64,000 nucleotides of DNA from Candidatus Latescibacterota bacterium (lineage in GTDB: Bacteria; Latescibacterota; UBA2968; GCA-2709665), in contig OZ244937.1 of assembly GCA_965222075.1 (NCBI GenBank), forward strand, positions 4,992,001 through 5,056,000, in the 5' to 3' direction. How positions within the stretch are numbered: the stretch's first letter is position 1; each line of letters begins with the position of its first letter. The position numbers and the translations under genes are program-made. This document shows, piece after piece, positions 12,850 through 62,762 of the stretch. The notes under the pieces were generated by a model. The model made no database searches. It saw only the letters and a program-made list of their open reading frames with translations, and had not been told where the DNA came from.

Positions 12850-12851
12850 CT

Positions 12852-14755: not shown

Positions 14756-14800
14756 AGTGTCTGTTCCCTTGCGATGTTTATATCCAAACCAACGGAGCCG

Positions 14801-14992: not shown

Positions 14993-15106
14993 AAGATCAC
15001 CCCCTTCAAATTTTGTATCCATTTGAGCAGGTAGAAAGATAGTATATATGTTGCAATATGTCAAGGTTGAATTTGAAGGCTTTGAAAATGGTGGGAGATG
15101 AGGGCC

Positions 15107-29443: not shown

Positions 29444-29662
29444 TGTGTTACTCCATAAGAGATTATGGAAAGGGTTCGTGCTGGAACGGAACTGTAGACG
29501 GCATAATATTGCAAATTTTTGGCACGCTGTCAAGGGTTTTAACATGCCAAAGGGCCACCGTGCATTTCAGATGTCAATACGCGGTGGCCCTGATCCGGAT
29601 GCGGCATCCTGCCTGAGAAGCTGTCTTAAAACCCCCAGCGGTCTTCGCGCGGCTGCAAAAGC

Positions 29663-30808: not shown

Positions 30809-30838
30809 GTACGCGTCTCCTGAGTTCGAACAAGCCTG

Positions 30839-32760: not shown

Positions 32761-33966
32761 CTATTTTTTCCCCTTGATGTCTACCTCCTCGCTACTTTTC
32801 TTTTTCTTTTTGAAGAACTCCTGCAGTTTCTTCTGCTCTTCTGTCAGCGGCGGATTGATCTCGTCGAGCATCCGCTGGGCGTTTCCGCTCCACTGCGGAT
32901 CGCGTTTCGCTTTCTCGTAAGATCTCAGGGCCCGAACGGAGTCTTGCTTGGACCTGGATTTTTTCCAACGGTTGAAGAAGTGACTGCCCTTCATGTAGTT
33001 GAGTTTTCCATTCCCCGGATCAAGCTTGAGGCCCCGGTTGACCATGGTGATGGCCCCGGTTGCATCGGCCAGTTGTTCAACCACCACCAGGTTGTCGGGC
33101 TGGAGCTGGAGCATTTTATTTAAAATTCGGACCTGAAACCTTTTGGACTTGTTCAGTTTCTTTCCGAGCGTGAGGAGATTTTCAAGGTAGAGGTAATTCT
33201 CGGGGTCGTGGGCGTGGAGTTTTTCGTAAGCGCCAAATGCCTTCTGAAGCATCTCTCGTTGCTGGTATATATTGGCCAGCGTCTCAAGGGTCGCAAAATC
33301 CTTCGGGTCCATCTCAATGAGCTTCTCCATCTCCTTCAGGGCCTCATCCTCTTCCCCCGTATGCAGGGCCAGCTTTGCGATTGTATCCTGTATTTCGGGG
33401 TTGTCCGGTTCCAATTCGCCCCAGCGGCGGGCGTACTGCAGGGCCAACTCGTACTCGCTCTCTTCAATATAGAGGCTCACCAGAGAATGCAGGTAGTGGA
33501 TCTCCTGCTCTTGCGCGGGAGATAAGCCAAGCAGAATATTATATGTCTCAATGGCTGCCGACCGGTTTTCCTGTATCAGATAGAGTTGAGCGAGATACGT
33601 ATAGGCAATTTTGGTATTTTTGCTCTGAGGCGCCAGCTCCGTTGACTTTTCGAACCAGGAGACTGCCTCGTCATAATGCTCGAGTTCGTTACGAAGCCTG
33701 CCCAGGTAATAGGCCGTCTTCGCATTTTTCTGGTTATAGTTCCAGGACTTGGTCAGTTGTACTTCCGCATCTTCATATTGTTTGCTCATCAAATATCTGT
33801 GGCCAAATAAGAGATGTTGGCTGGATAGCACGGCCGAATCGGCGGCCGCCAATTTGGGCTCGGCGTTTTCTTTCTCTTTCTTTTTTGCCGCGACCGATGA
33901 GACGTCTCCCAGAATCAGGAGCCCGCACCAAAGGCCGACCAACCCAAATCGTATTTTGGGTTTCAT
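32761..33966 (-). CDS. Secreted TPR-repeat protein
   Basis: Signal peptide (MKPKIRFGLVGLWCGLL...VAA) and multiple TPRs. Start chosen at 33966 after GGGGAG. Confidence 0.85.
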   Translation of the reverse strand: MKPKIRFGLVGLWCGLLILGDVSSVAAKKKEKENAEPKLAAADSAVLSSQHLLFGHRYLMSKQYEDAEVQLTKSWNYNQKNAKTAYYLGRLRNELEHYDEAVSWFEKSTELAPQSKNTKIAYTYLAQLYLIQENRSAAIETYNILLGLSPAQEQEIHYLHSLVSLYIEESEYELALQYARRWGELEPDNPEIQDTIAKLALHTGEEDEALKEMEKLIEMDPKDFATLETLANIYQQREMLQKAFGAYEKLHAHDPENYLYLENLLTLGKKLNKSKRFQVRILNKMLQLQPDNLVVVEQLADATGAITMVNRGLKLDPGNGKLNYMKGSHFFNRWKKSRSKQDSVRALRSYEKAKRDPQWSGNAQRMLDEINPPLTEEQKKLQEFFKKKKKSSEEVDIKGKK

Positions 33967-34241
33967 TGCGTTTACACTCCCCAATGGCCGATCCATCCTG
34001 GACGTTGTTTGAAAAAGGTTCGTTAAGCCTGTAAAAGTCCTATCATTAAAGGTCATTAAGGGGTCTGGAATCTTATGAATGTTGAAATCTAATGAATAGA
34101 AATATATATGTCAAGATAAAATCCACCCCATCTATATTTTTACCACATTTGAACGGCGGGGAGTCGGAAAAAGTTCCTTTTTATCGCCTTTAAAATAGGA
34201 CTAAAACCTGAAATTTCAATATATTATTGATATTTCCAATA

Positions 34242-44400: not shown

Positions 44401-44643
44401 CACGGTGTCCGTGTCTCTCCATACTCGCGGCCGGTGAGCCTGCGTGCGGCCACACGGGTAATTGCGATGGGATAAGAGGAGGAAATTTCGGGTTTCGGAA
44501 TGCGCAATATTAAGGTTTTTCAATTCGCAATGTGACAGGGGTCAAGTAGGTCTTGACCAGGAATACCTGATTGTGTAATTTTACATGTGCTGTTGAGCCG
44601 GTATCAGCCGGGGCATTTACCAGCATTCTTGGGGGAAAGAAGG

Positions 44644-47139
44644 ATGACAAGGAATAGCGAATTTGGAGGTTGCAATTTTACCGGGTTGTTCCACCTGTTC
44701 TCCGGGGTGCTGGTTCTGATCTTTGTTTGTGTCGGCCTGGGCGTATCGGACGGTAAGGAAGGGGAGATTCTTTATTCGCGCGCCGAACTGGATTCTCTGA
44801 CTTCTGGGGCCGAGCGACAGATGGGTGCGGGCGCGTTTGCGGAGGCCGCCGGCATCCTCGCCCGCCTTGCGGAGGCCTATCCGGAGGATGCCGTGCTCCA
44901 GATCCAGCTGGGCCATGCGTATCTGAAAAGTGGAGGCTTCAAAGGGGCTCGGGATGCCTTTAAGAGGGCCAAAGAACTCGATGGAACGCTCGTTGAGGCT
45001 TATGTGGGCCTCGGGATGGCCCACTTGAAGACGCCCGCCAGGGGGGTGCCGGCTTACTACAACTTCCGGCGTTCGGTGGGCGAGGCCAAGCGGGCGATCA
45101 AGATTGATTCCACGTACGCACCGGCTTACTGGCTTTTGGGCGAGGGCTATGAAGAATTCGAGGAAGACCATGAAAAGGCCGTGGCGTATTTTATGAAGTA
45201 TATCCAGCTGGAGTCGGACAATCCGGACGGGCTTTACGCCTTCGGGATTGCCTGTATTCAGGCCAAGCAATACGAGAAGGTGGACCAGTATCTCGCGCCC
45301 TACCTGAAGGAGAACCCCGAGGAGGTCCAGCTTCTTCCCCTCGTGGCTCAGGCGCATTTCTTTCTGGAACGCTTTGATCTGGCTTTAGAAAACTTCGAAC
45401 GCTATCTGCAGACGCTGGACGAGGAGGAGCGTCAGCTTTACACCGACATCTCTTTGGTTGCTTCCAATCAGGAGGTCGAGGATCTGGAGGCGACCCCGGA
45501 GGGGGAGCGTGTGGCCTACCTGGAGCAGTTCTGGCTGAGGCGGGATTCGGATATTCTGACCAAGATCAACGAGCGCATTATCGAGCACTATCGCCGGGTC
45601 TGGTACGCGCGGACCACTTTTGCCGACAGAATTCATCCCTGGGACAAACGGGGGGAGGTCTACATCCGGTATGGAGAGCCGGATTACCGCTCGCGGTCTA
45701 CGCAGCGGCAGTTCGTGCAGAGTGCCGAGGTCGAGCAGGTGCGCAACAATATGGCCGTGAAGATGTATGGCGCCGAGGCCACTTTCCTGACCTTTACCGG
45801 TCCGGTGTTTCCGGTCCGGTCGGTTCACAATCCAAACGCTGCGGGCCTACACAGCCTGCTCGACGAGTCCGGCGTGCCCGAAGAGGCGGATGACCCCTTT
45901 GATGAGGAGGCCGCTACGCAAATTCCAGAGGACGCGGCGGGGCCTCAAGGGTCGGTTGGGGACGGTTCGGGTGACGTGAATCCACTCGATAGTCCGGATA
46001 GCCGCTTCGACGAATTCGGTAATTTCAGGACCAAGCTCAATTTTGGGGGGTTCGCCCCCATCACGATGGGGAATGAGTTCGGGACCGTGCCCTGGGAGAC
46101 CTGGACGTATACGAAGATCGGGGGCGGCATCGAGATTACGTTCACAGACGAGAGGGGCAACGGGCAGTTCGATTTTGCGCCCATCCCACCGCCCGACTAC
46201 GACACAAACGTTGGCGATATGGCGCGTATCAACGAATTTGCGCCCGGCACGATTTTCGCGAACACCGCGGCCCAGGTGCCGGACTACTACCGCCCGAGCT
46301 TTCAACATCCCCCGCTTGACTTCTACTACGACCTGGCCGATTTCCGGGCTTCGGAGGGTCAAACCGCCTTAGAGGTCTACTACGGGATACCCCCCGAGCA
46401 GGTCGAGGCCGTGGAGAACTCGGACACGTCCCTGGTCCACGTGCAGTGCGCCGTGGCCTTGGCGAATTCGGATTATACCTCAATCCACCGGACCGCGTTG
46501 AAACACGCCTACCGGGTTGCAAACCGGTCTGATGCGCAGGCGATGGGATCGTTTATGCCCGAACTCCTCAAGGTGGAGGTGCCTCCCGGAGAATATGAGC
46601 TGCAGGTCCAGATCAAGGATCTGGTTTCGGGGCGCACCGGAATTTACAGGCAGTCGGTAGAGGTCAAAGAGTATCCCGAAGACGCGCTCCGAATCAGCGA
46701 CATCCAGCTTGCGGCGGCAATTGAAGACACGGGTTCGGCCCAGAGGTTCCGGAAGGGAGAGGTGTGGGTTGTGCCGATGCCGACCCGGAACTACCGGGAA
46801 TCCCAGAAGTTCTACGCCTATTATGAGATCTACAACCTCAGCAAGGACCCTTTCGGGCAGACGCGCTTCAGCGTACGATATCTGGTTCGGTCGATCTCAA
46901 AGCCGATCAAGGGGGCGTTGGGATCGCTTGCGGGGGGAGTTCGTTCCCTCTTCAAGAGCAAAAAACCCCAGGTTTCGATTACCCATGAACAGACCGGATT
47001 CGAACCGGCGGAGCAGGGATACGTGGAAATCGATTTGAGCAAGGCCAAGCCCGGGATTAACATCCTTGAGGTTGAGATTAAGGATCTTGTCACCGGTGAG
47101 AGCGCGACCCGGGAGATCCGGTTTCAGTACGGGGGGTGA
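44644..47139 (+). CDS. TPR + GWxTD-domain protein (variant motif)
   Basis: Signal/TM segment, TPRs, FW...D...NER..EHYRRV..A...F and WDKRGEVYIRYGEPD, followed by C-terminal Ig-like domains. Confidence 0.85.
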   Translation: MTRNSEFGGCNFTGLFHLFSGVLVLIFVCVGLGVSDGKEGEILYSRAELDSLTSGAERQMGAGAFAEAAGILARLAEAYPEDAVLQIQLGHAYLKSGGFKGARDAFKRAKELDGTLVEAYVGLGMAHLKTPARGVPAYYNFRRSVGEAKRAIKIDSTYAPAYWLLGEGYEEFEEDHEKAVAYFMKYIQLESDNPDGLYAFGIACIQAKQYEKVDQYLAPYLKENPEEVQLLPLVAQAHFFLERFDLALENFERYLQTLDEEERQLYTDISLVASNQEVEDLEATPEGERVAYLEQFWLRRDSDILTKINERIIEHYRRVWYARTTFADRIHPWDKRGEVYIRYGEPDYRSRSTQRQFVQSAEVEQVRNNMAVKMYGAEATFLTFTGPVFPVRSVHNPNAAGLHSLLDESGVPEEADDPFDEEAATQIPEDAAGPQGSVGDGSGDVNPLDSPDSRFDEFGNFRTKLNFGGFAPITMGNEFGTVPWETWTYTKIGGGIEITFTDERGNGQFDFAPIPPPDYDTNVGDMARINEFAPGTIFANTAAQVPDYYRPSFQHPPLDFYYDLADFRASEGQTALEVYYGIPPEQVEAVENSDTSLVHVQCAVALANSDYTSIHRTALKHAYRVANRSDAQAMGSFMPELLKVEVPPGEYELQVQIKDLVSGRTGIYRQSVEVKEYPEDALRISDIQLAAAIEDTGSAQRFRKGEVWVVPMPTRNYRESQKFYAYYEIYNLSKDPFGQTRFSVRYLVRSISKPIKGALGSLAGGVRSLFKSKKPQVSITHEQTGFEPAEQGYVEIDLSKAKPGINILEVEIKDLVTGESATREIRFQYGG

Positions 47140-47332: not shown

Positions 47333-47362
47333 TTGACAGAATGAATAGATCGGTTGTAAATT
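47333..47362 (+). promoter_or_regulatory. Putative sigma70 promoter of the OMP-TBDR operon
   Basis: A-tract UP-like element, then TTGACA-18 bp-TAAATT. Confidence 0.5.
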
Positions 47363-47621: not shown

Positions 47622-48341
47622 ATGAGAAAGTGTAAAGTTGTCAGTTTCGTTGTGGTGGCGCTCCTGCTGAGTTCGACGGTGGTTGTCTACGGCCAAAGTG
47701 CGGGTGCAAGCTGGGGTGTGGGCGCATTTTTGGACTATAACCGGTCGCTGTTCAAGATGAAAGACTGGTTTGACGACGGGCAGGGCAAAGTGGGGGTGGT
47801 CTTCACCTACGTGGTGGGTCCCAAGGTGAGCGTGGAGGTGGAGTATAGCCGTTCCAGGTTCACCAACGGGAGCCTTCAGGAGCGCACGTTCACGTGGGGT
47901 GTAGACGGTAAGGACTACCTCTCGCCTGGTGCGGTGAGCCAGATGACGATGAACAATTTTTTGGTGAATGGGATCATCCGGAGGACTGGCGCGGAGGTTC
48001 TTCGTCAGGGGAGTTATGCGCCCTATTTGACGGTGGGTGCTGGGTTTTACGATTATTCGACGGATGTTCGGAATTTGATTTATCCGGGTCAGAAGACGGC
48101 GCCTTTGGACCAGGCGTTGAAGCTGGATGCGTTCAGTGACACGCGCACGGCGCTTGGAGTGAACGCGGGTTTGGGGGTAGAGGGATTTGTGTTCGACAAT
48201 ATGGCTGTGGATCTTCGTCTTCGGTATAATGTGTTGTTGGGTGAGCTTCGTCCCATGGAGGCGTGGGGGATAGAGGGGCAGACGTTTCCGATGCAGTTTT
48301 GGAATGTTCGGGGAGGGTTGAGGTTTTATTTTGCGCGGTAG
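47622..48341 (+). CDS. Small outer-membrane beta-barrel protein (OmpA/OmpW-like), copy 1
   Basis: Signal peptide, amphipathic strands, PYLTVGAG, GVNAGLGVE and terminal GLRFYF. Confidence 0.85.
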   Translation: MRKCKVVSFVVVALLLSSTVVVYGQSAGASWGVGAFLDYNRSLFKMKDWFDDGQGKVGVVFTYVVGPKVSVEVEYSRSRFTNGSLQERTFTWGVDGKDYLSPGAVSQMTMNNFLVNGIIRRTGAEVLRQGSYAPYLTVGAGFYDYSTDVRNLIYPGQKTAPLDQALKLDAFSDTRTALGVNAGLGVEGFVFDNMAVDLRLRYNVLLGELRPMEAWGIEGQTFPMQFWNVRGGLRFYFAR

Positions 48342-48414
48342 GTCGTCGTTCGTTGTAGGGGATTGGTATCTCGTAGAAGCACACCAGAAGAAACGAGCGA
48401 CGATGTGAGCTGGG
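47664..48414. repeat. About 750-bp near-identical direct repeat of 62085-62835
   Basis: About 7 substitutions seen by eye. Covers the mature OMP and the downstream intergenic hairpin. Confidence 0.95.
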
Positions 48415-48431
48415 GAAAAGAAAAGGAGGAG

Positions 48432-51400
48432 ATGATGAGAAGGTTACAGATTTTGACAGGGATCGTACTTGCGCTGTGCGCTGTTCTGGCGATGGGCAGT
48501 GTGGCCACGGCAGGGACCACCGGGAAGGTGATGGGTGTTGTGATGGATGAGAAGGGAGATCCGCTGCCGGGGGCCAGCGTGGTGTTTGAGGGCACCCAGC
48601 GAGGCGCCGTTACCGATGCGGATGGGGCCTATATCCTCCTGTCGGCGGATCCCGGGGTCTACAGAGCGGTGGCCTCGATGGTGGGGTACCATACGGTGAC
48701 CCAGGAGCAGGTACAGGTGCGGGCGGAGTTCACCACGACGGTGAATTTCACGCTTCGAGAGCAGGAACTGGCGCTGGAGGAGATGGTGGTGGTGGCGGAG
48801 CGCCCGCCGGTGGAACCGGACAAGACAGAGAGCCGGTATGTGATAACGGCCAAGGATATCGAGCAGGCGCCGATCCTGCGAACGGTCAGCGATGTGATCA
48901 CGCTGGAGGCCGGCGTGGCCACCGACGGCACCGGCGCGATCCGGTCGGGGAATTTGCCGGACAACGGCTACTATGTGGACGGGATCCGGATACAAAACCA
49001 GGATGGGAAGGCCATTTACACCAGCTACGGGTGGAACCAGTGGGGACAGAATGTCAATGCGAAGGCGGTGCAGGAGATCTCCCTGATAACCGGTGGGCTG
49101 AATGCCGAGTACGGAAACGCGCAGGCCGGAGTGGTGAACATCATCACCAAGGATGGCGGGTCTGAGTACCACGGCGAGGTGGAATACCGGCTCACCCCTG
49201 CTGGGAAGAAGCACTGGGGAGCGGATGTTTACGAGGCGCCTGAGCACCGGGGGAATGCGAAGTGGGACGACCCGGAGTGGGTGGCGGAGGTGGATCCCCA
49301 GACGGGGAATCTGGTGCACCAGCGGACCAACTACACGAACTGGCGCGGACATCACTACGACGGTCATTTCAGCGGTCCGCTGCTTGGACAATCGTCCTTT
49401 TTCGTCAGCGCGATGCACCGACGGGCCGCGCCGGCTACCCCCAACGCGTGGGGGAAGCACCAGCCGCCCAACATCCGCACAACGGCAAAGCTGACGGTTC
49501 CGGGCGGATCGAACATGAAGTTCCGGTTCGGCTGGATCTACGACTACGCGGAAGATCACCAGGACGGCCGCACCGGCGGCACCACGTCCAACACGCCCAA
49601 CGTGCTGAGGGGCACGGGTCGGAACCTGTTCCTGCCGGTGGGGTCGCCAGCGGCGACGAGGGAGGTTACGGAGAACCTGCTCTACGGCGCGCTGACCCAC
49701 ACGGTCAGTCCAAAGACGTTTTATGAGGTGCGGTTATCGCGGTATTTAAGCAGGCAGGACACCAGCAAGCCGGGGACCATGACCTCACACGTCAGGAATG
49801 ACAAGGCAGGGTACTTCCACATCGGCCGGGATGAGGTCCTGGACTTTCGGATCGGCGAGCAGAACCGACTCGGCCTCAAGGCCGACCTGTCGAGCCAGGT
49901 CACGAAGGGGCACTTCATCAAGGCCGGGATCGATTACACGGCGTACGAAAACTGGTATTCCTGGGAGGCCAATACGCCCGGGGATACGAAGCAGCAGATC
50001 GTCTACATCGCCGACGGGGAGCCGGGCAATGCGATCAATCCGAAGCAGCTCGCCCTCTACGTCCAGGACAAGATGGAGTTTGAGGGCTTTACCGTGAACG
50101 CGGGCATCCGCTACGACCGGTTCTGGGGCGTGGATGTGCCGCTGATGGGCGCGATGCGGAAGTTCGTTTACAACAGGATGAACCGCTACATTCAGGCGCC
50201 TTTCTTGCCGATGCGGCCGATCGCCAACTGGAGCCCGAGGGTCGGGATCGCGCATCCGATCACGGACAGGGCGGCCCTGCACTTTTACTACGGGCACCTG
50301 TTCCAGCTCCCGAGTTTCTTCCCGATGTTCCACGAGGAGTGGTCGGGTACCGGTGGGCCGATTCAGGATATCAAGTGGAGCAACTACAACCAGACCTACC
50401 GGCCTGCCGGCACGGCCGGGGTACGGCCGATCTGGGACGACTCACAGCGGACGATCAGCTTTGAGTTGGGTACCGACTGGAACTTCGTGAGCGACTATAC
50501 GGTGGCGCTGGCCACCTTTTACAAGACCGCGTTTTTCCAGGATACGGGGGGTGCGAATATCACCTACAATCCGGGCACGAAGGTAAATGACTTCATCTCC
50601 TCCTATTCCAACACGTGGATGGAGGAGATTCGGGGCTTTGAGTTCAGCATCCGGAAGAGGTTTAGAAACTACTTCTCGTTCCGGGCGGCGCTAAACATCG
50701 AGTGGGCGGAGGAGGGTCAGGGTGGAGGTGGGAATGCCGCGGTCGCCGAAACTGCGTTCCCGGATTCCGCCTGGATTGTCGGCAGCGGGTACTACTTCCT
50801 CGACTGGGAGATCTCCGGCGGCCAGGAGCGTGGGGTGCCGCTCACGGATGAGCAGAAGCGGGAGATTGGCGCACAGGCCAATGCCGTCGTAAAGGACTTG
50901 CAGGCGAATCCCCTAAAGTATGTACAGGGGGCATCCGAACCGGGTCGGCTCTTCGCGGCCTGGGAGCAGGACTGGATGTCGGGCGAGACCCAGCAGGCGT
51001 CTGAGGGCATCTACCTGCTTCTCAATCTGCAGGGCGTCAGCCGGCGCGACAGGGGGCGGGCCGGACAGGGTAGCTTTCAGTTCTTTTTCGAGTCCCCGAT
51101 GGATTTAGGACCGGGTCCGAAGTTCGGCGGGCGCACCCTCTTAGGCGGCGTGCGTGCGAACCTGCTCTACCGGATCTACACCGGATCGAAGTTCGAGTAC
51201 GTCAACCTCGACGCGGTCAACGCAAAGGCGAGGGGGCCTTTGCACACGCGAGCGGATCTGAACGTGCAGAAGCGCTTTCAGGTCGGCGGCGTATCCGCCG
51301 ACCTCTACGTGGAGGTGTCCAATCTGTTCGATCAGAAGGACGCCAGAGCCACGAATGAGGACTACATGTGGTGGGGGCTGCAGACTCCAAAGCCCAACGA

Positions 51401-51494
51401 CGATGCCTACCTGACGTATGGGGATGTCTCGGATCGGACGCGCTTCCTGGACCGTCCGCGGGAGTCCCACGTGGGCATTCGGGTTATATTCTAG
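48432..51494 (+). CDS. TonB-dependent receptor with N-terminal carboxypeptidase-regulatory-like domain
   Basis: Signal peptide, GTTGKVMG..D..G.PLPGA, plug (YYVDG; GGLNAEYGNAQAGVVNIITK), NAGIRYD, SPRVG and C-terminal Phe. Confidence 0.93.
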   Translation: MMRRLQILTGIVLALCAVLAMGSVATAGTTGKVMGVVMDEKGDPLPGASVVFEGTQRGAVTDADGAYILLSADPGVYRAVASMVGYHTVTQEQVQVRAEFTTTVNFTLREQELALEEMVVVAERPPVEPDKTESRYVITAKDIEQAPILRTVSDVITLEAGVATDGTGAIRSGNLPDNGYYVDGIRIQNQDGKAIYTSYGWNQWGQNVNAKAVQEISLITGGLNAEYGNAQAGVVNIITKDGGSEYHGEVEYRLTPAGKKHWGADVYEAPEHRGNAKWDDPEWVAEVDPQTGNLVHQRTNYTNWRGHHYDGHFSGPLLGQSSFFVSAMHRRAAPATPNAWGKHQPPNIRTTAKLTVPGGSNMKFRFGWIYDYAEDHQDGRTGGTTSNTPNVLRGTGRNLFLPVGSPAATREVTENLLYGALTHTVSPKTFYEVRLSRYLSRQDTSKPGTMTSHVRNDKAGYFHIGRDEVLDFRIGEQNRLGLKADLSSQVTKGHFIKAGIDYTAYENWYSWEANTPGDTKQQIVYIADGEPGNAINPKQLALYVQDKMEFEGFTVNAGIRYDRFWGVDVPLMGAMRKFVYNRMNRYIQAPFLPMRPIANWSPRVGIAHPITDRAALHFYYGHLFQLPSFFPMFHEEWSGTGGPIQDIKWSNYNQTYRPAGTAGVRPIWDDSQRTISFELGTDWNFVSDYTVALATFYKTAFFQDTGGANITYNPGTKVNDFISSYSNTWMEEIRGFEFSIRKRFRNYFSFRAALNIEWAEEGQGGGGNAAVAETAFPDSAWIVGSGYYFLDWEISGGQERGVPLTDEQKREIGAQANAVVKDLQANPLKYVQGASEPGRLFAAWEQDWMSGETQQASEGIYLLLNLQGVSRRDRGRAGQGSFQFFFESPMDLGPGPKFGGRTLLGGVRANLLYRIYTGSKFEYVNLDAVNAKARGPLHTRADLNVQKRFQVGGVSADLYVEVSNLFDQKDARATNEDYMWWGLQTPKPNDDAYLTYGDVSDRTRFLDRPRESHVGIRVIF

Positions 51495-51589
51495 CAAGGT
51501 TGAGACCCGGGGCCTGGGGTGCTGACGGTTCAGCGTCCGGGACCCGGGCAGGTTAGGACATCACGATGGATGAAAGAGAGGAGAATGAG

Positions 51590-53836
51590 ATGAAAAAGGT
51601 TCATACAATCGGGGCGGTTGCCGTCCTGCTCGGCCTGCTGGTTTGGGGTCTGCCCGGTGCGCACGCGGACAACCTGCCGTGGCGGTTTCAGACCCGCGCG
51701 AAGGTGTGGGATATCCACTGGAACACGGGTACTCAGGGGGTTCGGGAGGGCTCATTCCTGACCTATTATCGGCCGATCGGGATGATGTACCCCGGCACGT
51801 TCATGGTGCAGTTTTCAAACGAATTCATCGACTACTGGGGCGTGCGGAGTTGGGCGGGAGCCACGCAGTGGCTCGCCTGGATGTACGAGATGGGGGCCGT
51901 TATGCCGGGGTTCGACACGTTCGTTGTGACGCGTGTGCCCGGATCCCCGGATGGGGAGTATCACGTGGCCGAATCCAAACCGACCTTCGAATCTGAGGAC
52001 ATCGTTCCGCTCGAATACGACCCGTCCCAGGGGCCGGAGGCGAGCATCGGGTATCCGAACTATTCCCCGCGGGGCCCGGCGATGGCCAACTGGTGGCCGG
52101 GGCAGCAGCCGCCTGGGGATCAGCCCATGGTCGAGATCCACAACTACCGGAAAGATCAGTACATGGATCCCGACAAGGATATGTTCCCCGAGAGTCTGAT
52201 GATCGCCCATTACGCCACCAAGCGGGGGATCAATGTAACCAAACGGGTGCTGGCGTGGGGCTATCCGGACTACGACGACTTTGAGATTGTGGACTATACG
52301 TTTGAGAACACCGGGGACCAGCAGCTCAACGACACCTTCTTTGCCTTCTCGGTCCGCTTCATGGTCTCGCACGCCGGGCACATGTGGCACGGGTACAACG
52401 CCTGGTACCGGAACACGAACCCGACCACGGATTCGGACGACCTCTACAAGTACACGGAGGCGTCCAACTACGACGGTCCCGCGTCGGGGGCGGGGCTGAA
52501 GATGTGGTATGCGTTCGACACGGACAACCCGCTGGTGCCGGGGGACGACCTGGGCCAGCCCTACAGCGTGGGCCAGGCCAGGTGGCATAACCGGGTAGGG
52601 AACATGCGGATCGAGGGCGAGATGACGGGCTACCAGTACGGGGGGCTTGCGCCGCTGGCCTACATGCCCGGGGCCGCCAACGATGCGAGTACGTGGACCT
52701 ACGATTCGAACACGTGGGAGACCGGCGACGCCAACTACGTGGCGCCCAGGGTGGCGGACCAGCCCTACAAGGTGGCCTGGACGGATTACCGCAACCGGGG
52801 CGACTACGACCAGCCGGACTCAAAGACCCATTCCTACGAAACCATGTACAACATGCTGGCCGGCGCCCCCGGCATCCAGGCCCCCCCCACAGAACCGACC
52901 GCGATCCACGGGACGACGACCTACGGGCCCTACGACTTAGCGCCCGGAGACAAGGTGAGGCTCGTATTCGTTCTGGCGGCGGCCGCCCCTGTGGAGGAGA
53001 ACATCTGGGGATGGGCGAAGCTGGGCGACCAGGATGTGATGCGCACGGATAGGACGTTCGACAACTTGGTCAAGCACGTGAACGCGGCCAAAGACGCCTT
53101 CGCGTGGGGCTACGATGTGCCCGATCCCCCGCCGGACGTGGGTACCACGGCGGGTGTGTCGGATGGCGGGTTTAATAAGCTGAGCTGGAACTCAGCTTAC
53201 GGCAGTGCCTCCGATCCTGACTACACGGGCGCTGAGGCCAATGACATCGCGGGCTATCGGGTCTACCGGTCGGAGTTTAAAGTAGGCGACTGGAAGCTTC
53301 TGGGCGATATCCCCGTTGGAACTGCCAACGAATTTGTGGACGAGAAGTCGATCGCCGGATTTACTTATTTCTACAGCGTCCGGGGCTACGATAAGGGGCA
53401 CGATGACTGGAACGGGACCGGGATGGCCATTCCCTCCTTAGAGGGTTCGAATAGCTCTCCCGAGACGTGGTCGAACGGCGTCCAGCCTCAGATCCCGTAT
53501 GTGCCGGCCACGTCTGGGGCAGATGCGATGCAGAAGCAGGTAATCGTGGTGCCCAACCCGTACAAGGTGGACGGTGCCCACGCCTACCCGGCGAGGGGCC
53601 GGATCCGGTTTTTGAATATTCCGCACAAGTCCCGAATCTGGATCTACACGATCTCCGGGGACCTTGCAGCCCGGGTCGACCACGACGATCCGACAAAGGG
53701 CGAGGCGAACTGGGAACAGGTCGACATCCACGTCACCGGATCGGTCTCCCCTGGCATGTATTACTACGTGGTTGAATCGCTTCTGCCGGAGAGCCAGGGG
53801 AAGATCCAGAAGGGTGCCTTTATGATTATCAAGTGA
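51590..53836 (+). CDS. Large secreted protein with FN3-like domain and T9SS type-A-like C-terminal domain
   Basis: SPI signal (AHA-DN), PPP..LSW...GYRVYR...FVD...YFYSV, and tail VVPNPY...IRFLNIP...IYTISGDL...W...PGMYYYVV...GAFMIIK. Confidence 0.8.
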   Translation: MKKVHTIGAVAVLLGLLVWGLPGAHADNLPWRFQTRAKVWDIHWNTGTQGVREGSFLTYYRPIGMMYPGTFMVQFSNEFIDYWGVRSWAGATQWLAWMYEMGAVMPGFDTFVVTRVPGSPDGEYHVAESKPTFESEDIVPLEYDPSQGPEASIGYPNYSPRGPAMANWWPGQQPPGDQPMVEIHNYRKDQYMDPDKDMFPESLMIAHYATKRGINVTKRVLAWGYPDYDDFEIVDYTFENTGDQQLNDTFFAFSVRFMVSHAGHMWHGYNAWYRNTNPTTDSDDLYKYTEASNYDGPASGAGLKMWYAFDTDNPLVPGDDLGQPYSVGQARWHNRVGNMRIEGEMTGYQYGGLAPLAYMPGAANDASTWTYDSNTWETGDANYVAPRVADQPYKVAWTDYRNRGDYDQPDSKTHSYETMYNMLAGAPGIQAPPTEPTAIHGTTTYGPYDLAPGDKVRLVFVLAAAAPVEENIWGWAKLGDQDVMRTDRTFDNLVKHVNAAKDAFAWGYDVPDPPPDVGTTAGVSDGGFNKLSWNSAYGSASDPDYTGAEANDIAGYRVYRSEFKVGDWKLLGDIPVGTANEFVDEKSIAGFTYFYSVRGYDKGHDDWNGTGMAIPSLEGSNSSPETWSNGVQPQIPYVPATSGADAMQKQVIVVPNPYKVDGAHAYPARGRIRFLNIPHKSRIWIYTISGDLAARVDHDDPTKGEANWEQVDIHVTGSVSPGMYYYVVESLLPESQGKIQKGAFMIIK

Positions 53837-53901
53837 GCCCCCAGGGGCTGCGTTCACCTGCTGGAAATTCTCTCGACGGGATTGGAAAAGGAGATAGAGC
53901 T

Positions 53902-54873
53902 ATGAAACGCGTTTTGATGTTCGGACTGATAGGCTTGGCAATCTGCGCACTGGTTGCGCCGCCGCCCGCTGCCGGTCAGGAGGAGGTAATCAGTACCGGT
54001 CAGAAGCGGGTGGGGCGGGCTGTGCTGTCGGTGCTGAAGGTGGATCAGGGAGCACGCGCCGCTGGGATGGGCGGGGCGTATGTGGCCATTGCGGATGACA
54101 TCAACACAGTTTTTGTGAATCCGGCCGGGTTGACCCACGTTGAGCGGGCTGAGTATACGTTTTCTTACACCCGCTGGCTGGTGGATTCCAAATTTTACTC
54201 AGGCGCGGTGGCCTACAATGTTGAGCGGGGCGTCTTAGGGTTGAGTGTGTTCGCTCATTCGCCGCCTAAGATGCTGGAGACAACGATCTTCCAGCCCTTG
54301 GGCACGGGCCGAGAGTTGGATGCAGGGGATGTTAGCATCGGTCTGACATTCGCCAGGAAATTGACGGACAGGCTCTCATTCGGCGTGCAGGTGCGCTGGA
54401 CGCAGGAGACCCTGGATGTGGACCGGATCAGCTCGGTGGATATGAATCTGGGGACGCTGTTCTACACGGGCTACCGGTCTCTGCGGCTGGGGATGACGTT
54501 TTTGAACCTGGGGAAGGACCAGAAGATCCTGGAAACGGAATACCACCTGCCGGTGGCGTTCAATCTGGCCACTGCAATGGAGATCATAGGCAATAAAGGC
54601 GACCAGACCTACCTCACCGCGACGGTCGAGAACTACTTCGCTACCGATTTTGCAGAACCGCAGTATCGGTTAGGCGGTGAGCTCTGGTTCCAGAACACGG
54701 TGGCGCTCCGGGGTGGCTATCGGATCAACTACGACCTGGAGACGTTCAGCGTGGGGGCGGGGGTGAAGTTCCAGCCGGTTGAGGGCAGAGAGATCCGTGC
54801 GGATTTCGCGTACAGCGATTTCGGCAGGTTTTTCGATGCGCCGCTACGGTTTAGCCTGAGCGGATCGTTCTAA
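53902..54873 (+). CDS. PorV/PorQ-family outer-membrane beta-barrel
   Basis: L...GARAAGMGGAYVAIADD...NPAGL, YT.WL.D, LRGGY and terminal Phe. Confidence 0.85.
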   Translation: MKRVLMFGLIGLAICALVAPPPAAGQEEVISTGQKRVGRAVLSVLKVDQGARAAGMGGAYVAIADDINTVFVNPAGLTHVERAEYTFSYTRWLVDSKFYSGAVAYNVERGVLGLSVFAHSPPKMLETTIFQPLGTGRELDAGDVSIGLTFARKLTDRLSFGVQVRWTQETLDVDRISSVDMNLGTLFYTGYRSLRLGMTFLNLGKDQKILETEYHLPVAFNLATAMEIIGNKGDQTYLTATVENYFATDFAEPQYRLGGELWFQNTVALRGGYRINYDLETFSVGAGVKFQPVEGREIRADFAYSDFGRFFDAPLRFSLSGSF

Positions 54874-54903
54874 CCGGCCCATCGTGTCCACGGACGATAT
54901 GGT

Positions 54904-54941
54904 GAAATGGCAGTCTGTAAAAGGACTGCCATTTCTCTTTT
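54904..54941 (+). terminator. Intrinsic terminator ending the TBDR-PorV operon
   Basis: GAAATGGCAGTC / GACTGCCATTTC perfect stem followed by TCTTTT. Confidence 0.75.
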
Positions 54942-54965
54942 ACGAGGTTCTGAACGATTTGTCTC

Positions 54966-54987
54966 AGGGGCAGACCTGTGTGTCTGC
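54966..54987. repeat. REP-like hairpin (GTAGGGGC-type); relative at 6563-6583
   Basis: AGGGGCAGACCTGTGTGTCTGC and GTAGGGGCGCATTGCAAAGCG. Confidence 0.5.
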
Positions 54988-55017
54988 TACGAAGAATCGG
55001 GCAAGAAGATAGGGGGC

Positions 55018-57456
55018 ATGACCATGTTGGCGTTAAAGGTGCTGAAGGCTGAGGTCAATCGGGTGGTGCTGCGGGTGGATCTGAAAGAACATAAGGGGGC
55101 GCGGATATTCCGGGCGCACCGGCCATCCGGGCCGTATGAAGAGGTGGGGGTGGCTTTTGAGGAGAGGTATGTGGATGCGGCGGACTTAGAGGCGGGGAAG
55201 ACCTATTACTACCGTTCGTTGGGCTGGAGGGCCCCCAGTCTGTATCCTGAGGTGGGGGACCAGGACGGCGGAAAGCCAGTTTCTGCGGTCGTTCCGAAGG
55301 CGCCGAAGGAGAGGCAGGTGGTGGTGACGCGGAAGCGGCAGGCGTTTACGGTGAACGTGGGCGGGTTCCTGGATGAGTCGAATACGGTAACGGTGGGGCC
55401 GGAGGTTTACTGCCCCGGGCCGAATTCGAGCATGCCGCCCTATGAGCAGGCGTTCGAGCCAAACCTGTATGTGGCGATCGAGAATATAGGCGAGACGGAT
55501 GTGGAGAACCCGTGGGTGGTGGCCAACGGGCAACGGGACTGGTGGTCGGTGGAGACGATGACCCGGGAGATCGCCGGCATTGCCGGCGGCGGCCGGCTGA
55601 GCGGTAAGGATAAAATGATGGCGATCTGGAAGTTCGTGGTGGACGAACTTTACGACAGCAGGATCGGTTTGTCCTGGTTCGACGGTACAAGCGATCCGGT
55701 CAAACTGTTCAATGTTTACGGGTTTGAGGGCTGTGTGGCAAACGCGATCACAAGCCGGCGCCTGGCCGAGGCGATGGGGCTGAAAGCCCGGGAGATCTGG
55801 CTGGGAGGCACCATCGACGGCTACGGCCGGGGGCGCAGTTGCGGGCACGATATTTTTGAGGCGTATGTGGACGGGACGTGGCATTTTCTGGATACGGATC
55901 TGATGGTATTTTTTTTGGGGCGGGACAATATGACGGTGGCCGGTTCGGAGGACCTGGCCCGGGATATCGACCTGCTGCGCCGGTCGCACCGAAACCTGGG
56001 GCTGTGCGGCCGGGATTTGCCGGAGAAAGATTATTACTACACCCCATTCCGGGAGCGGCAGTTTGTGTATCCGCCGAACAAGGGCGGAGCCTGGATGGAC
56101 AAGGCAGGCGGGATTAAACAGGCGCCGGGGAGATATCCGCCTGCGCGTACGATGGGGTTGCGGCTGCGTCCCGGGGAGAAGTTGGTGCGCTACTGGGGCA
56201 ATGTGGGAAAAAATGTGGTCCGGGGGAGGCGGCTGTACCCGGAGGTGCGGTTTTCCAACGGCAAGCTGGTCTACCGGCCGGACCTGTGCCGCCCGCTCTC
56301 TTTGAAAGGGACCGAGGAGGTGAAGGGCGTGGTGCAGGAGACGTCCGGGAGGGGTGTTGCGCTGCATCCGGAGAAGACGGGGGCGGTATCAGAGGTGGTG
56401 TGGAAGGTGGCGTCGCCCTATGCGATTGCCGGAGCGCGGGTGGGGGTCAGGTGCCGGCGGGAGACGCAGGAGGACGGTTTGGAGGTGCTGTTTTCGAAGG
56501 ACGGGAAGAACTGGCGGTCTGTATGGGTTGCCATCGGGCAGCGGCTGGATGCCTGTGTGGAGCTGGACTGGTACCTCAATCCGGCGCTGAACGATTGGCG
56601 GGAGGAGACAGATCTTGGATGGCGGATGGGGCCGTGCTACACATATTATATTAAGGTGGCAATGTGGGCAGGGTCCAGACCCGATGCGGTGGGACTGGAG
56701 GCGATCCGTTTTGATACGGATATCCAGTGCGCCACCCGGTCTTTGCCGGCGCTGTTTTGCGGGAAGAATACGATTGCCTACCGGGACGACAGCCGGGGAG
56801 GGCGGAAGGTAAGGGTGACGTATGGGTGGCAAGAGGAACATTCGATCCGGCCACCCGGAGCGCCGGGGCTGACGTATCCAAAGGACGGGGCGGATGTGAA
56901 CCGGCTGGATTTCGAGTTCCGATGGAAGCGTTCCAAAGGGGGCAGCGGGAAGGTGGACGATTACCATATCCAGGTGAGCCGGTATGCGGATTTCAGGTGG
57001 TGCGTATGTCCCACGTTCAACCGGTATGTGGGGCGTACGGGGTATGCGGGTAAGACACGGTGGCAGGCGGAGTTTCCAAATCTGCTGAATCCGGATGAGG
57101 CCTACTACTGGCGTGTGCGGGCGCGGAATGCGAAGGGGGTGTGGGGAGAGTGGAGTGAGGTGCGGTCGTTTGTGCCCCACGGCCCTCGTCTTCCGGTGGG
57201 TCTTGAGGTGGGGGGGCGAGGCAAGGGGAGGGCGCTGGTGTGGTCGGCGAATGGAGAGGGGAATCCGCCGGTGGCATATCGGGTTCACGGTTCGATGGAG
57301 GCCGGGGGGTTTTCGGCGGGTGAGGAGAATTTGCTGGGTGTTGTGGAGGAGGCGCGCTGGCCGTTGAACGACGCGAAGAAGGGGATGTCTTACCGGGTGG
57401 TGGCGGTGGATGCGCGGGGGGTGCCGAGTACGCCGTCGGAGTATGTTACGGTGTGA
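55018..57456 (+). CDS. Large protein with transglutaminase-like core and FN3-like domains
   Basis: Putative Cys-His-Asp triad (FNVYGFEGC...GHDIFEAYVDGTWHFLD) and YYWRVRARN...GEWS. Confidence 0.7.
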   Translation: MTMLALKVLKAEVNRVVLRVDLKEHKGARIFRAHRPSGPYEEVGVAFEERYVDAADLEAGKTYYYRSLGWRAPSLYPEVGDQDGGKPVSAVVPKAPKERQVVVTRKRQAFTVNVGGFLDESNTVTVGPEVYCPGPNSSMPPYEQAFEPNLYVAIENIGETDVENPWVVANGQRDWWSVETMTREIAGIAGGGRLSGKDKMMAIWKFVVDELYDSRIGLSWFDGTSDPVKLFNVYGFEGCVANAITSRRLAEAMGLKAREIWLGGTIDGYGRGRSCGHDIFEAYVDGTWHFLDTDLMVFFLGRDNMTVAGSEDLARDIDLLRRSHRNLGLCGRDLPEKDYYYTPFRERQFVYPPNKGGAWMDKAGGIKQAPGRYPPARTMGLRLRPGEKLVRYWGNVGKNVVRGRRLYPEVRFSNGKLVYRPDLCRPLSLKGTEEVKGVVQETSGRGVALHPEKTGAVSEVVWKVASPYAIAGARVGVRCRRETQEDGLEVLFSKDGKNWRSVWVAIGQRLDACVELDWYLNPALNDWREETDLGWRMGPCYTYYIKVAMWAGSRPDAVGLEAIRFDTDIQCATRSLPALFCGKNTIAYRDDSRGGRKVRVTYGWQEEHSIRPPGAPGLTYPKDGADVNRLDFEFRWKRSKGGSGKVDDYHIQVSRYADFRWCVCPTFNRYVGRTGYAGKTRWQAEFPNLLNPDEAYYWRVRARNAKGVWGEWSEVRSFVPHGPRLPVGLEVGGRGKGRALVWSANGEGNPPVAYRVHGSMEAGGFSAGEENLLGVVEEARWPLNDAKKGMSYRVVAVDARGVPSTPSEYVTV

Positions 57457-61208: not shown

Positions 61209-61279
61209 GAAATACGGCCGGTGGGTGCATTTGTACAGGCTGGTGTTCAGGATATAACATATTGATTCAGGAGGATTTA

Positions 61280-61951
61280 GTGGTAAGACAGCGTTTTGAC
61301 GGTCAGGCATCCCACGCGTACAAGACGCTACGGCACTGGATTTTGAGCGGCAACCTCGCTCCAGGTTCAAGGATCAACGTGCGAGAATCCATCGCCGAGT
61401 TGGGCACCAGCAACGGTCCAGTGCGCGATGCCCTCATCCAGCTCAGGAGTGAGCACCTGGTCCAGGGAGGGCACGGGCAGAACTGGACGGTGACCCGGGT
61501 AACACGTGAGATGATCGACGAGGGAATGATTGTGCGGGAAGGGCTGGAGGCACAGAGCGCGCGGTGCTGCGCGGTGTCGGCGACGCCGATGGGTATCCAA
61601 AGGCTGATGAAGCTTGCCGAGGAGCTCGACGACCGAGTTGAAGCGGGGCTGGACGCTGACGACTTGACGACTGAACTGGACGAACGCTTCCATCTCATGG
61701 TTGCAGAGACGGCCGGATGTGGCTGGCTCCGTGAAGAGATCAAACGCTGGACAGTTGTCATGACGTGGGCCGGACGGTTCATTGGCAACCTTAAAACGAA
61801 AGGTGAGAGTCACGTGGAGGTCGTCCGGGCGATCGCGACCGGGGACCCCGATGCAGCCGGCAGGCAGATGCGGCAGCACATCCTTCATCCGTGGCAGGAA
61901 ATGAAGTGGGAAGTGCACGAAACGGCCACACCGAAATCGGCTGTTGGTTGA
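61280..61951 (+). CDS. GntR/FCD family transcriptional regulator
   Basis: AY..LR..I..G.L.PG...S..PVRDAL wHTH, plus D..FH and H..V..AI..GD...A...M..H. Confidence 0.9.
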   Translation: MVRQRFDGQASHAYKTLRHWILSGNLAPGSRINVRESIAELGTSNGPVRDALIQLRSEHLVQGGHGQNWTVTRVTREMIDEGMIVREGLEAQSARCCAVSATPMGIQRLMKLAEELDDRVEAGLDADDLTTELDERFHLMVAETAGCGWLREEIKRWTVVMTWAGRFIGNLKTKGESHVEVVRAIATGDPDAAGRQMRQHILHPWQEMKWEVHETATPKSAVG

Positions 61952-62045: not shown

Positions 62046-62762
62046 ATGCGAAAGGTCGTTTTGGGATGTCTGGCGATGGTGTTTCTGCTGAGTTCGACGG
62101 GGGTTGTCTACGGTCAAAGTGCGGGTGCAAGCTGGGGTGTGGGCGCATTTTTGGACTATAACCGGTCGCTGTTCAAGATGAAAGACTGGTTTGACGACGG
62201 TCAGGGCAAAGTGGGGGTGGTCTTCACCTACGTGGTGGGTCCCAAGGTGAGCGTGGAGGTGGAGTATAGCCGTTCCAGGTTCACCAACGGGAGCCTTCAG
62301 GAGCGCACGTTCACGTGGGGTGTAGACGGTAAGGACTACCTCTCGCCTGGTGCGGTGAGCCAGATGACGATGAACAATTTTTTGGTGAACGGGATCATCC
62401 GGAGGACTGGCGCGGAGGTTCTTCGTCAGGGGAGTTATGCGCCCTATTTGACGGTGGGTGCTGGGTTTTACGATTATTCGACGGATGTTCGGAATTTGAT
62501 TTATCCGGGTCAGAAGACGGCGCCTTTGGACCAGGCGTTGAAGCTGGATGCGTTCAGTGACACGCGCACGGCGCTTGGGGTGAACGCGGGTTTGGGGGTA
62601 GAGGGATTTGTGTTCGACAATATGGCTGTGGATCTTCGTCTTCGGTATAATGTGTTGTTGGGTGAGCTTCGTCCCATGGAGGCGTGGGGGATAGAGGGGC
62701 AGACGTTTCCGATGCAGTTTTGGAATGTTCGGGGAGGGTTGAGGTTTTATTTTGCGCGGTAG
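62046..62762 (+). CDS. Small outer-membrane beta-barrel protein, copy 2
   Basis: Mature sequence identical to 47622-48341; the signal peptide differs. Confidence 0.88.
   Translation: MRKVVLGCLAMVFLLSSTGVVYGQSAGASWGVGAFLDYNRSLFKMKDWFDDGQGKVGVVFTYVVGPKVSVEVEYSRSRFTNGSLQERTFTWGVDGKDYLSPGAVSQMTMNNFLVNGIIRRTGAEVLRQGSYAPYLTVGAGFYDYSTDVRNLIYPGQKTAPLDQALKLDAFSDTRTALGVNAGLGVEGFVFDNMAVDLRLRYNVLLGELRPMEAWGIEGQTFPMQFWNVRGGLRFYFAR

Follow-up and report, generated by a model that had tools for sequence, protein, structure and literature searches.

A repeated receptor, supersandwich protein and PorV-like barrel cassette in Latescibacterota: a putative SusCD-like uptake module made from type IX secretion parts

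A 64,000-nucleotide stretch of the genome of a Candidatus Latescibacterota bacterium (GenBank assembly GCA_965222075.1, contig OZ244937.1, positions 4,992,001 to 5,056,000, forward strand), here called the window and used for all positions not otherwise assigned, carries at 47622–54873 a cassette of four plus-strand genes that we lean towards reading as an anchored surface-capture system, that is, an outer-membrane module for the capture and import of nutrients. The genes are separated by gaps of 93, 95 and 65 nucleotides and encode, in order, a small OmpA/OmpW-like barrel, a TonB-dependent receptor with CarboxypepD_reg and Plug domains, a protein of no annotated family termed the middle protein below, and a barrel of the PorV/PorQ family. 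SusC/SusD is the textbook model of complex-nutrient uptake by Bacteroidota, and the cassette probably does in its host what SusC/SusD does there. This reading is adopted because the genes are strictly linked and have evolved as units, because of the fold of the middle protein, the homology of its tail and the predicted docking of that tail, and because the genome has a type IX secretion system (T9SS) context and no SusD match. Precedent for cognate cargo–barrel pairs, an uptake-like genomic context and RNA contigs add to it.

In the proposed mechanism the TonB-dependent receptor would be the energised channel. The middle protein would leave the cytoplasm through Sec, and its C-terminal beta-sandwich would then most likely take it through the type IX pathway to the far side of the outer membrane. 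This tail would stay uncleaved and remain docked on the PorV-like barrel, at its extracellular loops, and the barrel would thereby act as a membrane anchor. The Trp/Tyr-rich supersandwich domain, held at the cell surface, would bind a substrate, probably a glycan or glycoconjugate, and pass it to the receptor. The three genes would have been duplicated together and have diverged into 20 versions, presumably differing in specificity and each accompanied by a regulator or catabolic genes of its own, and a small eight-stranded barrel, a TPR/GWxTD protein and a DUF6785/DUF6784 membrane protein would be frequent but optional companions. We infer the export route, the retention of the tail, the surface location, the binding of substrate and the contact with the receptor, and hence the mechanism of what would be an undescribed SusCD-like uptake module made from T9SS parts.

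The linkage of the genes is apparent from the host genome, a single 5.36-Mb contig in which the four proteins were compared by phmmer with 16,949 six-frame open reading frames (ORFs) of at least 90 residues. The receptor has 33 matches at E ≤ 1e-3, and 21 of these ORFs form a close subfamily at 20 loci, one member being split into two ORFs. The 22 matches of the middle protein comprise 19 intact genes, a further gene that is split in two pieces and a weak match that is unrelated; for the PorV-like barrel 20 matches reach E ≤ 6.5e-71 and a further four are distant, giving 24. Every close-subfamily member of all three proteins sits in one of 20 units with the order receptor, middle protein, barrel, a recurrence that goes far beyond chance. 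The original prediction, which was made from the letters of the window alone, had supposed a repeated module from a second cassette beginning at 62046, and both suppositions are borne out. The second cassette has a small barrel at 62046–62762 (+ strand), 96% identical to the first, and, on the same strand, a receptor gene from 62932 that runs past the window end at 64000, while the genome (5054932–5061373) adds the middle and PorV-like genes.

The units appear, from their sequences, to have duplicated and diverged as wholes. For the 18 units with three intact genes the distance matrices of the three proteins are correlated with r of 0.91–0.92, which none of 2000 permutations reaches. Since relatedness alone yields such a correlation, the result speaks for co-inheritance and not for co-adaptation. 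Agreement on the nearest paralogue is found in only 10, 7 and 9 of the 18 units for the three pairings, so that the history of the cassettes as units rests on matrix correlation and deep clades rather than on fine branches. A stretch of about 0.7 Mb across the contig ends (4.92–5.36 Mb and 0–0.25 Mb) contains fourteen of the 20 cassettes, which would form one large cluster if the chromosome is circular. In two of the cassettes (genome 2089816–2093020 and 4437715–4440122) one receptor occurs as two overlapping ORFs and one middle gene as two ORFs; these are frameshifts, through either decay or assembly errors.

The arrangement extends to other genomes. A pattern-based scan of one genome per species returned 238 candidate stretches; 168 of these encode a relative, and the 80 best form the external set used here. 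Going by record titles, Latescibacterota account for about 57 of these loci, sponge metagenome-assembled genomes (MAGs) of Gemmatimonadota for nine and Gemmatimonas for four, with one each from KSB1, Neomarinimicrobiota, Marinimicrobia, Fidelibacterota and Cytophagia and five lacking a name; these phyla are the submitters' MAG labels and may be wrong. The nearest external locus, 92% identical, is from Latescibacterota, which assigns the window to this phylum. The receptor gene stands upstream of the middle gene in 79 of the 80 loci, the exception starting at a contig end, and a PorV-like gene follows in 77, the misses being two loci at contig ends (L067 and L119) and L097. The gene order is therefore conserved elsewhere, as had been expected. 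In six loci of Marinimicrobia/Fidelibacterota type (L120, L122, L123 and L126–L128) a second homologue of the middle gene lies 3–5 kb past the PorV-like gene on the same strand.

Within the phylum, a sample of 151 genomes in which up to six candidates per genome were scored contains the middle family at E ≤ 1e-10 in 98. Every genome of the host's own family (18) and of the sister family (30) has a full-length match; in the largest family of the phylum 37 of 64 genomes give weak and probably partial matches. A broader proposal, which we hold more tentatively and rate a little short of even, is that in phyla of the Fibrobacterota–Chlorobiota–Bacteroidota (FCB) group other than Bacteroidota, TonB-dependent uptake of nutrients relies on a separate class of machine, in which a supersandwich protein exported by the type IX route and permanently held on a private PorV paralogue by an uncleaved C-terminal domain (CTD) is the capturing subunit of the receptor, representing an independent or ancestral solution of SusD type. 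It would cover Latescibacterota, KSB1 and Marinimicrobia/Fidelibacterota, and probably Ignavibacteriota and Calditrichota.

The middle protein is encoded by gene 3 (51590–53836, + strand), whose ORF is open from 51566 and reads 756 residues. The ATG at 51590 is Met9 of the ORF and nearly invariant in an alignment of 19 paralogues, and is thus the likely start of a 748-residue product. It matches no Pfam and no NCBIfam family at E ≤ 0.01. A search of 5.8 billion proteins returned 24 relatives, none with a Pfam domain, and the three with a source name are all 'hypothetical protein'. In the ESM Atlas its clusters are likewise all 'hypothetical protein' and occur most often in Fidelibacterota and Ignavibacteriota; a Por_Secre_tail is carried by 17% of the members of one such cluster. 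The protein contains no Cys and its signal peptide ends in AHA/D, a site of signal-peptidase-I type; among the paralogues no Cys is conserved within the signal region, which in most of them closes with AxA/Q. Trp and Tyr make up 10.1% of its residues against 4.4% in the crude proteome. It is accordingly, as first described, a Trp/Tyr-rich protein that is not a lipoprotein.

An AlphaFold model built on the 19-paralogue alignment, with a mean predicted local distance difference test (pLDDT) of 75.7 and a predicted template modelling score of 0.79, suggests three domains. The first, at residues ~31–518 (51656–53119, + strand), is a beta-supersandwich of the galactose-mutarotase-like fold, known from the domains that bind sugars at the N-terminus of GH94, GH15, GH116 and GH65 enzymes. 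Its best structural matches are 5nz7_A of GH94 (Z 18.6, root-mean-square deviation 3.8, 272 residues aligned, VIA-align), the GH15 glucoamylase 1lf6_A (Z 18.4), 2cqs_A of GH94 (Z 18.1) and a GH116 enzyme (Z 17.4), the best N-domain matches spanning 240–280 residues, and Foldseek gives E of 3e-7 to GH94 and GH116. Galactose mutarotases and aldose epimerases follow at Z 12–14. Neither an (alpha/alpha)6 nor any other catalytic domain comes after the supersandwich in the model. The possibilities that the protein is SusD-like or a stand-alone enzyme had been raised as alternatives; with no family at E ≤ 0.01 and a supersandwich lacking a catalytic partner, it is recognisable as neither.

It could nevertheless be that the middle protein is a surface enzyme, an undescribed beta-sandwich glycoside hydrolase or lyase that cuts polymers ahead of the receptor, and we consider this unlikely. 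In its favour are matches to the GH174 endo-fucanase 9k1g_B (Z 14.3), to aldose epimerases (Z 12–14) and to PL26 and PL15 lyases (Z 12–13), together with several Asp, Glu, Tyr and Arg positions that are invariant in the 19 paralogues. The better matches, at Z 17–18.6, are however to the non-catalytic N-domains of GH94, GH15 and GH116. Many of the invariant Asp residues moreover fall in the motifs ENTGDxDGDG (with its core DxDGDG), DGDNP and DDxGDP, which by their pattern look like metal-binding loops. Enzymes of polysaccharide utilisation loci also vary from locus to locus, whereas the middle family accompanies every receptor of the subfamily, as SusD does.

The supersandwich is followed by a fibronectin type III-like domain with approximate boundaries at residues ~520–612 (53123–53401, + strand), recognised from Foldseek matches to Fn3 tandems, its strand pattern and the motifs DVAGYRVYR and AGFxYxYSVR that are conserved among paralogues. 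The C-terminal beta-sandwich, at residues ~655–756 (53528–53833, + strand), is related to the sorting domains of the T9SS. When a profile of 104 tails (own and external) was aligned with one of 15 type-A CTDs of the genome, a sixteenth being left out as it is not C-terminal, hhalign gave a probability of 95.9% and E of 5.6e-9 over 74 columns. Common to the two are a PNP[FY] start, an I-x-I...G-x-L-V hairpin, a G-x-Y strand and a basic last residue, and the tail carries an 11-residue insertion after PNPY relative to the type-A CTDs. Among the 19 own tails CHU_C (PF13585, type B) and Por_Secre_tail are the commonest weak Pfam families, CHU_C matching 10 of 19 with a best E of 1.6e-4, and FlgD_ig comes next with three. 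A search of the Protein Data Bank sequences with the tail profile produced chance-level matches only (V-ATPase subunit E, E about 0.9). In two cassettes an extra small gene, in a frame of 259 or 269 residues just upstream of the small barrel or receptor, ends in a canonical type-A CTD (genome 7192–7437 in L030 and 134703–134930 in L033; TIGR04183 40.0 and 33.7 bits).

Gene 4 (53902–54873, + strand, 323 residues) encodes a cassette-specific subfamily of the FadL-like PorV/PorQ barrels. It scores 162.9 bits against the family model NF033709 (cut-off 90) over positions 3–325 of 326, which confirms that a PorV-like barrel directly follows the CTD protein, and lies below the equivalog models for PorV (NF033710, 57.9 against 250 bits) and PorQ (NF033711, 68.6 against 220 bits). 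The family has 26 matches in the genome. Faint matches of gene 4 are to PorP_SprF (E 0.0012) and to the NCBIfam model of BamG (E 0.0024, 17 against 250 bits).

The tail is predicted to dock onto this barrel. A complex model of the PorV-like barrel and middle-protein residues 520–756, each with a 19-row alignment of our own making, gave interface scores (ipSAE) of 0.90, 0.90 and 0.91 when run three times, whereas none of three controls rose above 0.00; the contacts agree to at least 94% between runs and the pLDDT of the partners is at least 74. The predicted interface consists almost wholly of tail residues 660–756. On the barrel it comprises an N-terminal segment (35–47) and loops that recur about every 40 residues, one of them being the conserved TTIFQPxGTG loop (124–134); this spacing fits a single face of the barrel, presumably the extracellular one. 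The model thereby lends support to the idea that the CTD protein is held on its own PorV paralogue.

Gene 4 could alternatively encode a FadL-type channel, with hydrophobic or amphipathic compounds as the substrates that the cassette imports and with a T9SS link of ancestry only. Gene 4 does have a weak Toluene_X (FadL/TodX) match at E 1.2e-6, below the cut-off. The neighbourhood also offers some encouragement, being rich not in carbohydrate-active enzymes (CAZymes) but in PhyH dioxygenases (5 of 92) and in methyltransferases (4 of 92) by a tally of 92 flanking proteins of at least 120 residues, taken from greedy ORF calls at up to three per side of the other 19 cassettes (the flanks in the window were scanned separately). 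This idea is nonetheless thought very unlikely, since the score for the PorV/PorQ family, at 162.9 bits, is far higher, the neighbour's tail is predicted with high confidence to sit over the barrel loops, and both the CTD-like tail and the supersandwich would be left without a role.

The machinery that would export such a tail is at least in part present. The SprA/Sov translocon is found as one 2126-residue frame with three matched stretches summing to 618 bits (cut-off 200). A PorU-like protein in a 1961-residue frame, with 212.8, 56.7 and 22.4 bits against a cut-off of 420, has a type-A CTD of its own. A separate PorV-family gene, near several CTD matches, scores 163.1 bits over the full length of NF033710, compared with 57.9 for gene 4. 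Proteins with partial GldK-like matches of the FGE-sulfatase type directly adjoin two of the cassettes (genome 1654998–1655813 and 4940864–4941211).

These components also allow a scheme in which the middle protein is not retained at all but released, as a hemophore-like scavenger of glycans, with the PorV-like barrel as export shuttle, the tail cleaved and the free protein returning with its substrate. PorV is called a shuttle for CTD cargo (excerpts of PMC10202324), the genome has the PorU-like peptidase candidate, and the linkage to the receptor would fit equally well. We regard release as improbable all the same. At another place the genome already has a general PorV-family gene, the one nearest to canonical PorV, and twenty barrels paired one-to-one with their cargo suit stable anchoring better than a transient shuttle. 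Cognate PorV-like barrels have, in addition, been proposed to protect CTDs from cleavage (excerpts of PMC10202324).

The anchored-capture reading would leave the SusD position to the middle protein, and SusD itself was not detected. The SusD_RagB model PF07980 has no match in the genome at E ≤ 0.01, with a positive control in Bacteroides thetaiotaomicron, in a search that did not extend genome-wide to PF14322, PF12741 and PF12771; to this extent the claimed lack of SusD holds. In the sample of 151 genomes from the phylum, single weak partial matches turn up in 25, and none of these is among the 18 of the host's own family.

Gene 2 (48435–51494, + strand, ORF open from 48363) encodes a receptor of 1019 residues that consists of a signal peptide, a CarboxypepD_reg-like N-terminal domain, a TonB-box-like stretch, a plug and a putative barrel. 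Pfam assigns CarbopepD_reg_2 (E 2.2e-19) and Plug (E 8.2e-8), the latter (PF07715) at 33.2 bits over residues 130–233 against a cut-off of 23.9. The sequence EEMVVVAER, located behind the N-terminal domain and ahead of the plug, resembles a TonB box. No Pfam barrel family is found in the barrel part at E ≤ 0.01. TonB-hemin models match residues 531–795 (E 5.2e-10, below cut-off), and TIGR01785 and TIGR01786 match residues 512–795 with E of 5e-10 to 1e-7, far under their cut-offs. The SusC/RagA model TIGR04056 covers only residues 31–251, with 59.8 bits against a cut-off of 368.25, and by that partial, sub-cut-off match the receptor is not a member of the SusC family.

The genes that accompany the cassettes are in keeping with uptake. 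In the window, Mannitol_dh, Peptidase_M55 and PhyH genes lie upstream of a TPR and GWxTD gene that precedes the cassette, and downstream there are an 849-residue Fn3/Ig protein, two GFO/IDH/MocA oxidoreductases, a glyoxalase and a GntR/FCD regulator (61262–61951, + strand; GntR E 2.5e-12, FCD E 2.5e-16) that stands directly upstream of the second cassette and heads it. Dehydrogenases of sugar type and a GntR regulator adjoin cassettes. In the tally of the other 19 the families found most often, among the 25 commonest of 119, are TPR (up to 11), DUF6785 and DUF6784 (seven each), PhyH (five), S-methyl_trans (four) and LacI with Peripla_BP (three).

Two families stand out when 101 flanking proteins of all 20 cassettes are clustered. 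The TPR/GWxTD proteins, of 820–1200 residues, adjoin 11 of the 20 own cassettes, usually directly after the PorV-like gene, and follow that gene on the same strand in 22 of the 80 external loci; the genome has 27 phmmer matches at E ≤ 1e-8 (for example 5318796–5321294). The member in the window (44587–47139, + strand) has 850 residues and matches TIGR04514 with 57.8 bits (cut-off 28) as well as TPR families. A membrane protein of 650–735 residues with DUF6785 and DUF6784 and 9–11 hydrophobic segments adjoins seven of the 20 own cassettes and is found downstream on the same strand in 32 of the 80 external loci, with 47 genome matches at E ≤ 1e-8 (for example 5110036–5112039). This polytopic protein, of a family for which no mention was found in open-access papers or bioRxiv, is a candidate inner-membrane transporter. 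Its linkage fits an import route with an inner-membrane step, and does not thereby identify the substrate. Two adjacent ExbD/TolR-like genes in the window (30398–31249, – strand, 136 residues each; TolR/ExbD E 4e-12 to 4e-6, below cut-offs), with TPR proteins on either side at 28652–29545 and 32761–34056, are, judged by likeness, a possible energising module of a TonB system.

The frequency of the TPR/GWxTD proteins, which at 11 of 20 cassettes are the commonest neighbours, could also be taken to indicate a surface-display or adhesion module in which the TonB-receptor-like barrel has a structural or signalling role and nothing is imported. The host is sponge-associated by sequencing-run labels, and adhesion could matter there. 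We judge such a function highly improbable: a plug and a TonB-box-like stretch are both found in the receptor, the genes around the cassettes include GntR and LacI regulators of catabolic type as well as dehydrogenases, and candidate inner-membrane transporters are linked to the cassettes.

The cassette sequence is also represented in RNA libraries. Four metatranscriptome libraries from one study, labelled as sponge metagenomes, contain 73–80% of the sampled cassette words, in contigs that differ from the window by 0–4 letters. Contigs bridge the junction of the receptor and middle genes (for example 50891–53304) and that of the middle and barrel genes (for example 53416–54860). Past the terminator, at about 55419–57221, no contig cover is found in the four runs, although such a hole proves nothing.

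Several results weigh against the proposal that the middle protein is an anchored capturing subunit. Contact of the receptor with either partner belongs to what is inferred and has been neither predicted nor observed, and the supersandwich also matches catalytic domains (mutarotases, some lyases and GH174). Glycoside hydrolases are absent from the 25 commonest of the 119 flank families (92 proteins). The RNA evidence consists of assembled contigs from one study, which give no transcript ends, strand or level and may include carried-over DNA. As to docking, the ipSAE mark, which 58 of 80 solved complexes but also 2 of 110 mismatched pairs attained in calibration, applies only roughly to a model made with self-made alignments, and a score does not amount to binding; the result may also partly reflect likeness to solved PorV–cargo structures. 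Interface positions do not differ in conservation from the others (0.57 against 0.62 and 0.58 against 0.57) and, being neither more nor less conserved, make no case for or against paralogue-specific pairing.

The T9SS assignment is subject to similar reservations. The type-A CTD model TIGR04183 has 16 matches in the genome and none in the middle genes, the type-A family PF18962 (Por_Secre_tail) matches seven of 19 tails weakly (best E 0.0021), and the tail in the window scores 12.8 bits with CHU_C against a cut-off of 27. Given this failure of the curated models together with homology at the profile level, the tail is named a divergent CTD-like domain and not a type-A CTD; of the predicted type-A-like CTD, the likeness stands and membership by the curated threshold does not. 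The genome-wide survey of sprA, porKLMN and porU that had been proposed likewise gives a divided picture. SprA is present and the PorU-like protein falls below its cut-off, whereas GldK has partial C-terminal matches in the FGE-sulfatase domain only (best 98.9 against 350 bits), and GldL, GldM and GldM_1st have no match in a genome search whose control genomes also give nothing above cut-off. A complete T9SS is thus not demonstrated.

The SusC/SusD (RagA/RagB) system is the closest parallel in organisation. Both systems have a receptor with a CarboxypepD_reg-like domain, a gene for a secreted partner directly behind it, many divergent copies and regulators and catabolic genes nearby. Unlike SusD, whose fold is helical and TPR-like, the partner in the cassette is an all-beta supersandwich protein that lacks a PF07980 match and, being free of Cys, is not a lipoprotein; it has a CTD-like tail and an obligatory PorV-like barrel of its own. 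The receptor also differs in falling below the SusC/RagA model (59.8 against 368 bits). From polysaccharide utilisation loci the cassettes are set apart by the missing PF07980 SusD match and by the fact that CAZymes are not prominent among the 25 commonest of 119 flank families.

A functional analogy is offered by TbpA/TbpB with Slam in Neisseria, a bipartite TonB receptor with a surface lipoprotein, TbpB, and an outer-membrane translocator, Slam. As in the cassette, a receptor is combined with a surface-exposed binding partner and a neighbouring barrel that places the partner on the surface. The families are unrelated, however, and Slam is a translocator whereas the barrel of the cassette is proposed to be a permanent anchor.

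For the tail and barrel themselves the parallels lie within the T9SS. In the passages available of PMC10202324, PorU and PorZ are described as keeping their CTDs bound to PorV and PorQ, and type-B cargo genes as usually clustered with a cognate PorP/SprF, for which an anchoring role is proposed. The cassette shares with the PorZ–PorQ, PorU–PorV and type-B cargo–PorP/SprF pairs a CTD-like tail at the C-terminus, a PorV-family gene next downstream and, by prediction, docking of the one on the other. Those pairs (and SprB/SprF) serve the attachment of cargo or gliding adhesins and not a TonB-dependent receptor. They are also described for Bacteroidota, whereas the pair in the cassette is joined to a receptor operon, occurs in 20 copies and belongs to Latescibacterota and allied phyla. 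The same source calls CTD proteins Bacteroidota-restricted. A PorV-like barrel recruited to a machine other than the T9SS is known in BamG, part of the Bacteroidota barrel assembly machinery (BAM) complex (excerpts of PMC12578637 and PMC12611786), and the faint match of gene 4 noted above (E 0.0024) recalls it, although the score of 17 against 250 bits and the gene context set the two apart.

What appears to be new is the joining of a cargo–barrel pair with a TonB-dependent receptor in one conserved operon that is multiplied in phyla lacking SusD. No description of the cassette was found in open-access papers or bioRxiv, and subscription journals could hold one. In the accessible parts of the 2015 Latescibacteria genome paper TonB import is mentioned for B12 and iron only, and the terms PorV, T9SS, Latescibacteria, Marinimicrobia and Ignavibacteria are absent from a September 2026 review of glycoside transporters. 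The cassette has 20 copies here and many in related genomes, its components are all unannotated or generically annotated, and no explanation was found in open-access papers or preprints for uptake without SusD in the sister phyla of Bacteroidota, which are abundant in oceans, sediments and sponges. If the proposal is correct, the cassette would provide a marker for uptake loci in uncultured FCB lineages and a new family of surface binding proteins, with 20 paralogues that could be matched to substrates. T9SS sorting domains would then also be used beyond secretion and attachment, as reusable membrane anchors for transport complexes.

The small barrel, encoded by gene 1 (47622–48341, + strand, 239 residues), matches OMP_b-brl with 29.8 bits (cut-off 28.7) and is modelled by AlphaFold, with a pLDDT of 87.0, as an eight-stranded barrel with long strands. 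Its Foldseek neighbours are OmpA, OmpW, Ail, OmpX and NspA (E 4e-10 to 1e-5). All ten paralogues in the genome lie upstream of cassettes, a profile search finding no further copies there, and 10 of the 20 cassettes have one, as do 56 of the 80 external loci. As every copy belongs to a cassette and only half of the own units have one, the small barrel is cassette-specific yet optional, and the constant fourth subunit that had been envisaged is not upheld.

Upstream of gene 1 a sigma-70-like promoter candidate, TTGACA and TAAATT separated by 18 nucleotides with 10 of 12 consensus matches, is found at 47333–47362 (+ strand). Across the region five promoter-like sites occur against 3.7 expected from shuffled sequence, so the candidate is to be read as a consensus match only. 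The cassette ends, 31 nucleotides past the stop codon of the PorV-like gene, with an intrinsic-terminator-like element at 54904–54945 (+ strand), formed by a hairpin of 13 pairs (six G-C) at 54904–54935 and a T-rich tail. Four co-oriented genes closed by a terminator had been proposed, and both the gene coordinates and the hairpin agree with this. The first ATG of the next ORF, at 54907, lies inside the hairpin, and that gene therefore probably starts later. It is the gene for the 849-residue Fn3/Ig protein 3' of the terminator (54907–57456), which has weak Ig_Rha78A_N and fn3 matches and two paralogues in the genome. Elsewhere in the window, at 10001–16000, there is an island of low GC content (0.44–0.50 against about 0.60) in which the starts of the ORFs resemble, by eye, those of DNA methyltransferase genes.

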